Positions 3,260-8,978 of a stretch of 16,117 bases of DNA are shown one piece after another. Made by a program: the position numbers and the translations under genes. The stretch comes from Armatimonadia bacterium. GTDB taxonomy: Bacteria > Armatimonadota > Zipacnadia > Zipacnadales > UBA11051. The notes beneath the pieces are model-generated. The model was not told the DNA's origin. It made no database searches and saw nothing but the letters and a program-made list of their open reading frames with translations. The DNA lies in NCBI GenBank assembly GCA_039683575.1, contig JBDKRC010000259.1, positions 1 to 16,117 on the forward strand, written 5' to 3'. Each line of letters begins with the position of its first letter. Position 1 is the stretch's first letter.

Positions 3260-3335
3260 TGGTGGACGGGAAGGGATTCGAACCCTCGACCTCCTCCGTG
3301 CGAGGGAGGCGCTCTCCCAGCTGAGCTACCCGCCC
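3260..3335 (-). tRNA. tRNA-Ala(CGC), 76 nt, CCA encoded
   Basis: GGGCGGG TA GCTC AGCTGGGA GAGC G CCTCC CT-CGC-AC GGAGG AGGTC GAGGG TTCGAAT CCCTT CCCGTCC A CCA; G3:U70 alanine identity pair and A73. Confidence 0.97.
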
Positions 3336-4441: not shown

Positions 4442-4457
4442 GGCCGGAGTCGTGTCG

Positions 4458-4563
4458 GGCTGTAGGGCGGGGGCTCCGTACCCCGCCTGCCGTTATCTAC
4501 GACCTTCCCGAGCAGCGGAGCGGTGTCTGCACCGCAGGGGTACGGAGCCCCCGCCCTACAGCC
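4458..4563 (+). repeat. REPIN-like element copy 2, with a 20-nt insert at 4517-4536
   Basis: GGCTGTAGGGCGGGGGCTCCGTACCCCGCC-TGCCGTTATCTACGACCTTCCCGAGC-AGC[insert]GGGGTACGGAGCCCCCGCCCTACAGCC. Confidence 0.9.
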
Positions 4564-4572
4564 GGAGGCGCC

Positions 4573-4601
4573 TTGCCAGAATCGTCTCCGGCTGGCATAA
4601 T
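4573..4601 (+). promoter_or_regulatory. sigma70-type promoter for the deacetylase/isomerase genes
   Basis: TTGCCA-17 bp-CATAAT. Confidence 0.65.
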
Positions 4602-5558: not shown

Positions 5559-6236
5559 ATGAAACGTTCCCAAATCAACCAAATCATTCGCGAGGGCATC
5601 GCCTTCTGCGAGCAGATGAACTTCAAATTGCCGCCATTCGGCTATTGGAAGGCCGACCAGTGGCAGGGGCGCGGGGCGGAGTGGGATGAGATCCGCGACA
5701 ACATGCTCGGCTGGGATTGTACCGATTTCGGCTCCAATGACTATGCCAACGTCGGACTGCTGCTCTTCACGATCCGCAATGGCAACCTGAAGCTCACCGA
5801 GAAGTACGAGAAGCCGTACTGCGAAAAGCTGATGATCATCGGCGAAGACCAGTATTGCCCGTGCCATTACCACTTCAACAAGATGGAAGACATCATCAAC
5901 CGCGGGGGCGGGAACCTGCTGCTCAAGCTGTGGTGGAAGGACGATCAGGAGGGCCTGAGCGACAAGCCGGTCCAGGTCTCCATAGACGGGCACCGCGTCG
6001 AGGTGGAAGCCGGCAGCGTGGTGCGGCTGACGCCGGGGGAGAGCATCACCCTGCCTTCGTACCTGTACCACACCTTCTGGGCCGAGCAGGGCCAGGGGCA
6101 GGTGCTCTCAGGCGAGGTCTCGAAGGTTAACGATGATGTAACCGATAACCGCTTCCTGGAGGAGCTTCCGCGGTTTTCGGCGATTGAGGAAGACGAGGCG
6201 GCGGAGCATTTGCTGTGTAACGAGTATCCGCGGTAG
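5559..6236 (+). CDS. D-lyxose/D-mannose ketol-isomerase family cupin protein
   Basis: MKRSQIN..., LPPF, LGWDCTDFG, GLLLFTIRNG, YCEK, PCHYHFNKMEDIINRGGG, LTPGESITL, GEVSKVNDDVTDNRF; all characteristic of this family. Confidence 0.9.
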   Translation: MKRSQINQIIREGIAFCEQMNFKLPPFGYWKADQWQGRGAEWDEIRDNMLGWDCTDFGSNDYANVGLLLFTIRNGNLKLTEKYEKPYCEKLMIIGEDQYCPCHYHFNKMEDIINRGGGNLLLKLWWKDDQEGLSDKPVQVSIDGHRVEVEAGSVVRLTPGESITLPSYLYHTFWAEQGQGQVLSGEVSKVNDDVTDNRFLEELPRFSAIEEDEAAEHLLCNEYPR

Positions 6237-6245
6237 GGAGCGGGC

Positions 6246-6377
6246 TCGGGCTGTAGGGCGGGGCTTGGCGATGTCCGCATCGCAACTCGTACCCCGCCTG
6301 CCGTTATCTACGACCTTCCCGAGCGGCGGAGCGGTGTCTGCACCGCAGGGGTACGGAGCCCCCGCCCTACAGCCCGA
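6246..6377 (+). repeat. REPIN-like element copy 3, with two 20-nt inserts (6265-6284, 6328-6347)
   Basis: TCGGGCTGTAGGGCGGGGC[insert]ACTCGTACCCCGCC, same spacer as copy 2, then GGC[insert]GGGGTACGGAGCCCCCGCCCTACAGCCCGA. Confidence 0.9.
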
Positions 6378-6445
6378 AACGCTACAGCCGGAACCGCTTG
6401 AATATATGAACATCACACACACTCGTATCCCACTTCTACGCAAAG

Positions 6446-6572
6446 GTTGTCACCAGGGCGGCTCTAGTCAGCCCGGGGAAAGCCCGGGCGTGACAGCCGA
6501 GGCTGGCGTCTGCCAGCCTCCCGGAGGGGCCGAGCTTTAGCCGGCCCAGTAGAGCCAACCTGAAAGGACAAC
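6446..6572 (+). ncRNA. Candidate structured cis-regulatory leader RNA (four-way junction), family unassigned
   Basis: Four helices can be drawn by complementarity and the basal helix brackets the RBS of the aminotransferase; structure read by eye only. Confidence 0.55.
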
Positions 6573-6578
6573 ACCAAA

Positions 6579-7736
6579 ATGCATCTGGCAAACCGCATGC
6601 AGCGTCTCGGCACCGAGACCGCTTTTGAAGTACTCGCACGGGCTAAGCAGCTTGAGCGCGAGGGCAAGAACATCGTTCACCTCGAGATCGGCCAGCCCGA
6701 CTTCGACACCCCCAAGTTCATCAAGGACGCGGCCTGCAAGGCTCTCGACGAGGGCGTAACGGGCTATGGCCCCTCGGCCGGCGATCCGGACCTGCGCGAG
6801 GCAGTGGCCGAGCACATCAGCACCAGCCGCGGCTTCCCCGTGAGCCCGAACGAAGTCGTGATCGTGCCGGGCGCCAAGCCCATCATCTACTGGGGCATCA
6901 CGGCCTGCGTGGACGAGGGCGACGAAGTTATCTACCCCAACCCCGGCTTCCCGATCTACGAGTCCATGATCAACTTCGTCGGCGCCAAGCCCGTGCCGAT
7001 CGCGCTGCGCCAGAAGAACGACTTCCGCCTCGACCCGCAGGAACTGATCTCGCTGGTTACCCCCAAGACCCGCATGATCATCATCAACTCGCCCCAGAAC
7101 CCCACTGGTGGCGTGCTGGAGATGGAAGACCTCGAGGCCATCGCTGAAGTCGCCATCAAGAACGACATCATCGTCATGAGCGACGAGCCATACGAGTCGG
7201 TTCTCTACGAGGGCAAGCACTACAGCATCGCGGCGCTGCCCGGCATGAAAGAGCGGACCATCCTGCTCGACTGCTTCAGCAAGAGCCACGCGATGACCGG
7301 CTGGCGGCTGGGCTACGGCGTTTGCCCGGTGGAAGTGGCTGACGCCATCGCCAAGCTGGAGACCAACTGCGTATCCTGCACCACCGTCTTCGTGCAGAAG
7401 GCCGGAATCGCCGCTCTCAAGGGCCCCATGGACGAGTCCCGCGCGATGGTGGCTGAGTTCAAGCGCCGCCGCGACGTGATCGTGGATGGCCTGAACCAGA
7501 TCAAGGGCTTCAGCTGCCTCAAGCCCAAGGGCGCGTTCTACGTGTTCCCCGACATCACCGGCACCGGCATCGACTCGCGGACGCTCGCCAAGAAGATCCT
7601 CGAAGAGGCCGGCGTGGCCGTGCTGTCCGGAACGGCGTTTGGGGAATATGGTGACGGTCACCTGCGTCTGTCATATGCGAACTCCGTGGAGAACATCCAG
7701 GAAGCGCTGAAGCGGATCGGGAACCTGCTGAACTAG
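6579..7736 (+). CDS. PLP-dependent aminotransferase class I/II (AspC-like, subgroup Ib)
   Basis: LEIGQPDFDTP, NSPQNPTG, SDEPY, FSKSHAMTGWRLGY (PLP lysine), GAFY, LRLSYA; AAAGGA RBS. Confidence 0.93.
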   Translation: MHLANRMQRLGTETAFEVLARAKQLEREGKNIVHLEIGQPDFDTPKFIKDAACKALDEGVTGYGPSAGDPDLREAVAEHISTSRGFPVSPNEVVIVPGAKPIIYWGITACVDEGDEVIYPNPGFPIYESMINFVGAKPVPIALRQKNDFRLDPQELISLVTPKTRMIIINSPQNPTGGVLEMEDLEAIAEVAIKNDIIVMSDEPYESVLYEGKHYSIAALPGMKERTILLDCFSKSHAMTGWRLGYGVCPVEVADAIAKLETNCVSCTTVFVQKAGIAALKGPMDESRAMVAEFKRRRDVIVDGLNQIKGFSCLKPKGAFYVFPDITGTGIDSRTLAKKILEEAGVAVLSGTAFGEYGDGHLRLSYANSVENIQEALKRIGNLLN

Positions 7737-7742
7737 ATCGTC

Positions 7743-7790
7743 GCTGTAGGGCGGCGCGACGGCTGCGTCGCAGGGGGCTCGTATCCCGCC
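7743..7790 (+). repeat. Single family-1 REP (copy 4), with a 20-nt insert at 7753-7772
   Basis: GCTGTAGGGC[GGCGCGACGGCTGCGTCGCA]GGGGGCTCGTATCCCGCC. Confidence 0.8.
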
Positions 7791-7797
7791 GCCTCAA

Positions 7798-7897
7798 CGC
7801 GTAGGTGGGTTTGTCCCCAAACCCACATCTTGCCGGTGGTGTCGGTTCGAGACGAACCGACCTACGCGGTTCATGGGCGAGACGCCCGACCTACGCG
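7798..7897. repeat. Cluster of three family-2 GTAG REPs
   Basis: GTAGGTGGGTTTGTCCCCAAACCCAC (+, 7801-7826); GTAGGTCGGTTCGTCTCGAACCGAC (-, 7841-7865); GTAGGTCGGGCGTCTCGCCCA (-, 7874-7894); each preceded by CGC. Confidence 0.8.
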
Positions 7898-7976
7898 GTG
7901 ACTGTTTCGGTTTTGGGTATAATGGGAGGGGCCGACGGCGGCCCCTCTCGCTTCAAATGCTCAGGGGGCGTGCGGC

Positions 7977-8978
7977 GTGATTCTTGTTCTTTCGGCCAAT
8001 GCCGGCATAGATCGCACCTATGAGGTAGCCAACTTCACGGTTGGGCACTATCACCACCCTCGTCGCTTCCGGGTCATACCCGGTGGCAAAGGCGTGAACG
8101 TCGCGCGCGTGCTACGCAAGCTTGGCAACGAGGTCATGGTGACGGGCTTTGCAGGCGGGAACGTGGGCAACCATCTGACCGCCATGCTGCGAGCCGAGGG
8201 AATTCGCCCTGAGTTCGTCAAAATCGCCGAAGAGTCGCGCCTGTGTCTGAACATCGTTGACGAAACGACCAGATCGCAGACGCAGCTTGACGAGGTCGGG
8301 CCGCTGGTGTCACCGGCGGAACTCGACCTGCTCCACCGGCAGTGGACCAAGCTGCTGCGGCACTGCAAACTGGCGGTGATAGCCGGCAGCGCGCCGCGCG
8401 GGGTGCCTTTTGAGGTCTACACCGACTTCATCTTCGCGGCCAAAGAAGCGCGGCTGCCGGTGGTGCTGGACGTGCGTGAGCCATACCTGGCCGAGGCAGT
8501 ACAGGCCGGCCCCACGATTGTGAAGCCGAACCTGGAGGAGCTCTCCAGTCTGGTGCAGAGTGAACTCAGCGTGCCGACAGGCGTCACAGTGGCCGCCAGG
8601 GACCTGCTGCGCCACGGCATCAAGCTGGTGCTGGCCTCGCTGGGCAAGCAGGGCGCCATCGCAGTGACTGCCGAGGCGGGGAACTGGTGGGCGAAGTCGC
8701 CAGCCGTGGAGCAGGTGAGCCCGGTCGGCTCGGGTGACGCCATGGTTGCCGGGCTGATCCACGCGGGCCTGCGCAAAGAGGGGCTGCAGGGGCGGCTGCG
8801 GTGGGCGGTGGCGGCCGGGGCGGCCAATACGGCAAAACTCGGCGCGGCGTGCTGCGAGGCCGAAGAGATTGAGAAGCTGGTGCCGGAAGTGAAGGTCGAG
8901 CAGCTAACGGAAGAGGGCCTCGTTCAGGCCCAGCCGGAAGCGCCGCCGGCGGCGGCGCCACAGGCGCCGCATGGATAA
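7977..8978 (+). CDS. 1-phosphofructokinase family hexose kinase (PfkB)
   Basis: [56 protein letters not shown] at 7918-7923 upstream. Confidence 0.9.

Follow-up and report, generated by a model that had tools for sequence, protein, structure and literature searches.

The leader of the class I aminotransferase gene in the window (the whole stretch of 16,117 nucleotides analysed here) is very probably a composite of two layers, an ancestral motif made of a conserved tail and the hairpin P2, and a recent REP doublet that was inserted behind it. The four-way junction into which this leader folds is restricted to one lineage, and nothing marks it as a ligand-sensing aptamer. The tail plus P2 is a previously uncatalogued leader motif without counterpart in Rfam, and it is accompanied by a REP/RAYT family in Armatimonadia.

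Results

Fold of the junction and the downstream gene

The original prediction had described a four-way junction that encloses the ribosome-binding site (RBS) of an aminotransferase gene. Its helices and junction strands were all found where it had placed them, as were the AAAGGA (6563-68) and the ATG (6579):

6446-51/6567-72, plus strand: basal helix of the four-way junction (GTTGTC/GACAAC), part of P1
6454-57/6559-62, plus strand: middle helix of P1 (CAGG/CCTG)
6460-66/6550-56, plus strand: top helix of P1 (GGCTCTA/TAGAGCC)
6548..6572, plus strand: 3' strand of P1 with TAGAGCC (6550-56), CCTG (6559-62) and GACAAC (6567-72)
6467-77/6483-94, plus strand: extended helix P2
6499-6507/6512-20, plus strand: P3, arms GAGGCTGGC/GCCAGCCTC
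6527-32/6542-47, plus strand: stem of P4 (GGGCCG/CGGCCC)
6563-68, plus strand: Shine-Dalgarno (SD) sequence AAAGGA, overlapped by the 3' strand of P1; ATG at 6579
6579..7736, plus strand: class I aminotransferase, AspAT / aromatic-AT like, 385 aa

The junction is the minimum free energy (MFE) as well as the centroid structure calculated by ViennaRNA for 6440-6585, helix for helix as first drawn, and the base pairs of P1 reach probabilities of 0.73-1.0. With an MFE of -83.6 kcal/mol the segment is far more stable than 200 dinucleotide shuffles of it (-54.6 +/- 3.9 kcal/mol; z -7.49; 0/200 as good). The three lone hairpins supply -57.2 of these -83.6 kcal/mol (P2 -22.0, P3 -19.8, P4 -15.4). Moreover, the minus strand of the same segment folds nearly as well (-81.6 kcal/mol, z -6.26), hence the signal originates from perfect Watson-Crick palindromes without strand specificity. 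The P1 duplex, formed by 6440-6466 with 6548-6585, has an energy of -27.4 kcal/mol that was reached by none of 2000 shuffles and by 59 of 3000 random genomic 38-mers. The closing helix P1 is non-random in its own genome, yet it is a feature of one lineage.

The location of the element in front of an aminotransferase gene was confirmed as well, since the encoded protein is a class I enzyme according to PF00155 (E 6.6e-72) and to matches with solved structures, the closest being the Pyrococcus aromatic aminotransferase 1dju (E 4.2e-93), the AspAT 1gd9 (7.3e-93) and the Thermus AspAT 1bkg (5e-82). An ortholog exists in all 41 relatives searched. A gene for a pfkB-family hexose/1-phosphofructokinase-like kinase follows the aminotransferase gene in the own genome (window 6579-8978) and in G002, G003, G004, G024 and G065; the two genes may represent a conserved two-gene unit.

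The hairpin P4 is a REP element

P4 is certainly a REP element. The following repeats were located in the window:

6522..6547, plus strand: P4 REP element, cGGAG-GGGCCGAGCTTTAGCCGGCCC
6499..6520, plus strand: P3 hairpin, probably a diverged copy of a second REP family (GTAG..CGGGCGTCTCGCCCG)
6246..6377: REP doublet (REPIN-like) of the GTAG family, separate from the junction, CTGTAGGGCGGGG... with 18-nt perfect inverted arms
1697-1769, 4448-4581, 6246-6377 and 7744-7780: copies of the GTAG family

A BLAST search with 6440-6580 against the own genome (G000; Armatimonadia, 6.23 Mb on 352 contigs, 63.5% GC) returned 58 matches, among which only the locus itself is full length, while all remaining ones fall within query positions 66-121, i.e. 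P4 and its surroundings. Accordingly, exact copies of P1a, P2, P3 and P1b are found once each, those of P4 40 times. When up to 3 mismatches are allowed, the 21-nt core of P4 has 128 copies on 74 contigs, compared with 2 for the reversed sequence as control. Full flanks are available for 124 copies; the prefix GGAG stands in front of 116 of these, and the tail CGYYATC comes after 75. Adjacent copies are arranged in 13 inverted pairs, which are all convergent and spaced by 57-63 nt with one exception (40 nt), and in 14 direct pairs, 8 of them spaced by 57-59 nt. The P4 copy in the window is a singleton that adjoins a different hairpin.

The P4 family is lineage-specific: a GCGC variant is present in 83 copies in G003, whereas 0-1 copies were found in G001, G002, G004 and G024. 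The aminotransferase leader of G003 is free of a P4-type repeat, although this genome is rich in them.

Seven matches to Y1_Tnp (PF01797) exist in the own genome. One of them, C31:890-1150 with 38.7 bits (cut-off 23), belongs to a 160-aa Y1/HUH open reading frame (ORF) with an HVH motif at 740-1222 on the minus strand of this contig (C31:669-1343, locus L023). It is bracketed on both sides by convergent P4-type pairs, at 673-753 and 1260-1339. RAYT genes flanked by their REPs have been described (PMC3116915, PMC3337134), and the position of the C31 transposase between REP pairs corresponds to that arrangement. The C31 ORF is a candidate for the cognate RAYT of the P4-type REPs and might have mobilised them.

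P3 and other palindromes of the window

In the own genome, P3 is found once at up to 3 mismatches, three times at up to 4 and 26 times at up to 5. However, window positions 6505-6548 are 91% identical to a composite repeat on another contig, C310:9582-9626. There, a GTAG-tagged hairpin of the CGGGCGTCTCGCCCG family is located directly before a P4-type REP with the common spacer TCTCCCGGAG, and the GGCGTCT-GCC core of P3 together with the spacer CTCCCGGAG matches this copy; in a hand alignment the P3 stem differs from the C310 hairpin by a two-sided change. The GTAG-tagged CGGGCGTCTCGCCCG family yields 421 strand-hits at up to 2 mismatches, and a similar hairpin stands no more than 50 nt upstream of 17 of 125 P4-type copies. 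Behind P4, the sequence 6548-6558 aligns with the usual 3' flank of the P4 REP family. One inserted composite repeat thus seems to account for P3, for P4 and for a portion of the 3' strand of P1. The derivation of P3 from a REP is probable, as judged from one good alignment and positional analogy.

Further palindromes were noticed in the window. At least four of its intergenic regions contain inverted doublets of the GTAG-tagged REP family (CTGTAGGGCGGGGGCTCCGTACCCC...). Positions 2228-2314 harbour a perfect 29-nt inverted repeat (CAAAATGGGGACGGAGCC...) with a 29-nt spacer, which is probably a further repeat family, because its word aaatggggacggagcc recurs beside REP copies on other contigs.

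The junction is not shared by orthologous leaders

None of the 15 other full leaders examined contains the 3' strand of P1, P3 or P4, and the covered part of L116 lacks them as well. Among the leaders that carry the tail and P2, the stretch between P2 and the RBS is unalignable. It is occupied by a GTAG-type REP doublet in G002 and L109, by a 9-bp GC hairpin in G003 and L121, and by a long palindrome in L110. In the locus L107, which encodes a protein 96% identical to that of the window, P2 is present and a diverged REP occupies the corresponding site; P3 and TAGAGCC are missing, and GACAAC is all that is left of the 3' strand of P1.

A GC-rich tail of 13 nt readily meets complementary stretches. 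Pairing of the tail with the downstream leader is no better than in shuffled sequences over 16 leaders (mean z -0.14), and it is also inconspicuous in the own leader (z -1.40, p about 0.10). A conserved 3' partner of the tail was therefore rejected: candidates exist in most leaders, with different registers and positions and at the level of shuffles. When the 27-nt 5' flank was paired with the last 38 nt of each leader (500 shuffles each), strong pairing with the RBS region was restricted to the own leader (z -4.65, 0/500) and L107 (z -3.50, 0/500). G019 showed a weaker value (z -1.79, 28/500), and the other 13 of 16 leaders were at chance (z -0.42 to +1.47).

Hence, the four-way junction fails as a unit on two counts that the original prediction had itself listed as refuting: P4 is a dispersed repeat with 128 copies and P3 plus P4 resemble a composite repeat, and orthologous leaders show neither conservation nor covariation of P1, P3 and P4.

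A conserved leader motif consisting of the tail and P2

The part of the leader that is shared with relatives comprises these features:

6454..6466, plus strand: tail CAGGGCGGCTCTA (CAGGGCGGCUCUA), the 5' strand of the middle and top helices of P1
6471..6489, plus strand: core of P2, GCCCGGG/CCCGGGC with loop GAAAG, here extended by GTCA (6467-70)/TGAC (6491-94)
6442..6495, plus strand: covariance-model match, tail plus P2 with short flanks, 63.3 bits (model R1)

In orthologous leaders the order is CAGGGCGGCTCTA, NNN, R and a GC-rich hairpin, as at 6454-6489 of the window. Eleven of the 13 tail columns are invariant in the 16-sequence alignment A2, the exceptions being R at position 3 and Y at position 6, and the tail 12-mer AGGGCGGCTCTA is found once in the own genome. 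The tail is identical even in leaders whose proteins are 68-77% identical and whose other intergenic sequence is unalignable. P2 is present in all homologous leaders, with a stem of 7-9 bp and a loop of 3-9 nt. Its total length was counted by hand as 18, 19, 20, 22 or 23 nt; the steps between these lengths are not divisible by three, so that no conserved reading frame can run through P2. Between the motif and the start codon lie 99-216 nt.

In the P2 alignment 91.7% of the cells are paired, and compensatory pairs replace G-C by A-U in 4 sequences and by C-G in one. None of 500 shuffles reached the covariation score, which is to be read with the relatedness of the sequences and with a collection pattern that fixed most of the 5' arm and thereby suppressed observable variation. 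The covariation is thin, comprising two compensatory pairs and probably two events.

The distribution of the motif was analysed with the covariance model R1 (tail plus P2, built from 16 sequences). Matches of at least 26 bits were obtained in 12 of 67 genomes of the order and 12 of 79 of the class, one per genome and always beside the ortholog; matches above 50 bits likewise appear once per genome. Ten of the positive genomes are training genomes (57.7-67.9 bits). The other two are G042, with 26.8 bits and cut by a contig end, and G065, which lies outside the training set and has a match of 29.0 bits 114 nt upstream of its ortholog; the next best match in the order has 23.1 bits. In a phylum sample of 151 genomes, two matches of 25-26 bits were found outside the order, neither of them adjoining an ortholog. 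An exact pattern scan over 185,579 species genomes detected 12 loci, 7 of which belong to Armatimonadota. In six of these the ortholog follows downstream, and the seventh is truncated at a contig end; the 5 loci from other phyla lack the 3' arm of the hairpin. The same kind of scan in metagenome contigs gave 20 loci, 12 with the ortholog downstream, one cut short (L116) and 7 unrelated. The exact 18-mer is also present in G029, where it belongs to a different local repeat without the 3' arm of P2, and in G036, where R1 scores 19 bits.

The gene upstream of the motif varies, comprising a lyxose isomerase, a polysaccharide deacetylase, an acetate-kinase-like and an MreB-like protein (the latter two named by eye from their C-termini). 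The motif goes with the aminotransferase, independent of the upstream gene. Collectively, our data show that the tail plus P2 is conserved, single-copy and tied to the aminotransferase and to the strand, while changes of stem and loop length are tolerated. The original prediction of a cis-regulator can be upheld in so far as the tail and P2 form a leader element that is conserved, present once per genome and specific to this gene; a ligand is not indicated by any of the data.

Several additional features were observed in the leaders. In family f5 (G024, G041, G034, G038 and L113; e.g. L068, L065), P2 is immediately followed by another small hairpin, CCC(G)-loop-(Y)GGG, with AC behind it; L113 has a G-U pair there (by eye). 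The genus g4 (G008 and G015, loci L047 and L050; also G006, G010, G011 and G013) has two tandem aminotransferase paralogs. It is without the tail and P2 and shares another leader block, C[AC]GGGCGGCG..GTCGCGGCGC.TGCGG...TGACAACTGCCGG, which starts like the tail. In most homologous leaders the word CATGA/ATGA precedes the tail by some 33-42 nt (6402-6406 in the own leader). In 7 leaders of different clades it stands exactly 42 nt before CAGGG, and in some genomes it holds the stop codon of the upstream gene. This word may be part of a promoter or start region.

A mini-ORF of 6 codons (TTG/GTG/ATG ... GGG CGG CTC TAG) extends across the tail at 6447-6467 and is found in all 4 genomes of the own genus (G001, G002, G003 and the own genome). 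It was rejected as a conserved feature, because other genera have TAC for TAG and no start codon there; furthermore, its SD-like AGG abuts the start, and by eye the tail is conserved at all three codon positions. An alternative hairpin of the tail CCAGGGC with the 5' arm of P2 was likewise dismissed, since G-to-A changes in the tail are uncompensated (by eye).

Search for known RNA families

The statement that no known riboswitch consensus is recognisable was borne out by the search against Rfam, which assigned the element to no family. At the gathering threshold, Rfam 15 recognised a tRNA at 3263-3335 (minus strand) and nothing else in the whole window. In a search of 6150-6700 at E up to 10 with permissive filters, the sole overlap with the element was a SNORD10 hit at noise level (11 bits, E 7.9). 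On 13 homologous loci, Rfam gave no match at E up to 0.1.

Metagenomic depth and transcription

The summed depth of DNA contigs from two DNA runs is 7.9-8.1x over 6408-6491, which comprises the tail and P2, and over the gene. It increases to 47-63x over 6492-6575, and amounts to 45-94x over the upstream REP doublet (6240-6407), against a baseline of about 7x. This contrast indicates that P3/P4 are multi-copy in the community and the tail plus P2 are not. Furthermore, in a DNA contig of 780 nt from a near-identical strain, 71 other letters take the place of 6498-6577, between 6497 and 6578.

Two metatranscriptomic libraries were derived from one sample, and contigs from them are identical to 6429-6589 and 6348-6613, which would fit a transcript that runs through the entire leader into the ORF. 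Such RNA-library contigs show neither strand nor ends and may include DNA carry-over; some parts, for example 6318-6347, are uncovered in both runs. A consensus scan of 6150-6650 detected no sigma-70-type promoter and no intrinsic terminator. Promoter candidates selected by eye, i.e. the recurrent CATGA with TAC-type -10 sequences, were discarded, because their registers are inconsistent.

Discussion

Our preferred explanation separates an old from a young layer. The ancestral layer, found in one order of Armatimonadia, would consist of the near-invariant 13-nt tail CAGGGCGGCUCUA, 3-4 variable bases and the GC-rich hairpin P2 ahead of an AspAT-like gene. It may act in the mRNA as binding site of a trans-acting factor, be it a protein, an RNA or a small molecule, that controls the aminotransferase. 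From the sequence comparison we infer that the tail plus P2 works as RNA rather than DNA. This reading is favoured by the combination of a freely varying stem and loop with a constant placement of the tail next to the hairpin, and the G-U pair noticed by eye in the second small hairpin of L113 is the one further hint. The recent layer would be a REP doublet (P3, P4 and flank) that was inserted between P2 and the RBS in the lineage of the window, presumably mobilised by a RAYT-type Y1 transposase. In the own genome, the tail and its 5' flank would then happen to pair with the REP-derived flank and the RBS region, giving rise to P1. This helix brings the three hairpins together in a four-way junction and is expected to occlude part of the SD sequence. 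Given that P1 exceeds shuffles and that its basal helix survives in L107, P1 may have a lineage-specific function in covering the SD.

How far do other explanations account for the same observations? That the whole junction at 6446-6572 is one ligand-sensing aptamer, i.e. a new riboswitch class opening and closing the RBS, could be concluded from the very stable and unambiguous fold, from a P1 that beats shuffles and covers the SD, and from the missing match to an Rfam family. However, P4 is a REP with 128 copies and P3 plus P4 match a composite repeat, the P1 3' strand, P3 and P4 are missing in orthologous leaders including that of the relative with the 96% identical protein, a co-occurring strain is without 6498-6577, and the antisense strand folds almost as well; we regard this explanation as extremely improbable. 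A more restricted version, in which the tail plus P2 alone is a small aptamer whose tail docks on the hairpin or forms a pseudoknot and which senses an amino acid, a keto acid or a PLP-related metabolite, takes into account the near-invariant 13-nt tail beside a covarying hairpin, its gene specificity and its place before a central aminotransferase. The smallest riboswitch classes are of comparable size. Nevertheless, a conserved partner of the tail was not found, the loops vary and downstream complementarity is at chance. There is also no terminator and no conserved SD-sequestering platform, the 99-216 nt up to the start codon are filled with unrelated sequence, and the range is narrow (12/79 class genomes). 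The main argument against a classical riboswitch is that no expression platform travels with the motif, and the small aptamer appears quite improbable to us. With the same low expectation we mention a broader proposal, namely that the 36-40 nt core (CAGGGCGGCUCUA plus P2) represents a new very small riboswitch or protein-binding RNA of one Armatimonadia order, which would control the aspartate/aromatic aminotransferase and perhaps the downstream pfkB kinase, and that the REP insertion has been co-opted in the lineage of the window, where P1 would couple the core to SD occlusion.

The two remaining alternatives dispense with an RNA function. The tail might act in the DNA as an operator or unusual promoter element, with P2 as 5'-terminal stabilising hairpin or cruciform. 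Conservation of the tail sequence without pairing partner would fit. So would its location: in several genomes the tail follows the stop codon of the upstream gene by about 37-39 nt, in a stretch that has to contain a promoter or operator. The promoter may be unusual, since none of the sigma-70 type was detectable. However, the tail is not palindromic, it occurs once per genome so that no regulon becomes visible, and a tail that always adjoins the 5' side of a hairpin whose length varies is better explained as part of one RNA unit; a role in DNA is hence unlikely. Finally, nothing here might be functional, the tail plus P2 being a slowly decaying relic of an old REP or of an upstream-gene terminator and the junction neutral repeat clutter. 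The intergenic regions of the own genome are indeed full of palindromic repeats, and GC-rich hairpins without U-tract are common. Against neutrality, the tail is identical where the proteins are 68-77% identical and the remaining intergenic sequence is unalignable, the motif is single-copy in every genome, and it tracks the aminotransferase and not the upstream gene, which makes a mere relic very doubtful.

The composite of ancestral motif and inserted repeat also holds a more general lesson. In a GC-rich genome, REP palindromes can build a riboswitch-like multi-branched fold with an extreme z-score, and copy number and orthologous leaders need to be checked before such a structure is believed. 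The gains are a REP/RAYT system in Armatimonadia and a compact, gene-specific leader motif before an AspAT-like gene. Armatimonadia belong to a little-studied phylum that is mostly known via metagenome-assembled genomes; if the tail plus P2 proves to be regulatory, it would offer a way into the gene regulation of this phylum.

Comparison with known systems

Rfam catalogues taxonomically restricted riboswitch candidates and orphan cis-regulatory leader motifs. The tail plus P2 resembles them as a short conserved sequence with a covarying hairpin that is always located 5' of one orthologous gene on the same strand. It differs from the catalogued motifs in matching no Rfam 15 model, and it has a single helix with two covarying pairs and no recognisable expression platform.

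The AGGGUGG in the tail resembles the T-box sequence, and the T-box family is among those covered by Rfam. The resemblance lies in a G-rich conserved strand with YGG that stands 5' of a hairpin and before a gene of amino-acid metabolism. The T-box reading was rejected, because the Rfam searches of the window and the homologous loci gave nothing. Unlike in a T-box, the sequence upstream of the tail is too short for a Stem I or specifier, the key U is replaced by C in 14 of the 16 sequences of alignment A2, and the helix-closing 3' strand is not conserved across leaders (by eye).

P4 shares its main characters with REP/REPIN elements: an imperfect palindrome of about 25 nt, more than 100 dispersed, lineage-specific copies, and convergent inverted doublets that are often about 59 nt apart. 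The P4 family opens with GGAG in place of the GTAG tetranucleotide, which does occur in the two other repeat families observed here. As in the REP/RAYT systems described in PMC3116915 and PMC3337134, P4 copies are found on both sides of a Y1 (HUH) transposase gene; unlike in those systems, the host of P4 is an Armatimonadia genome.
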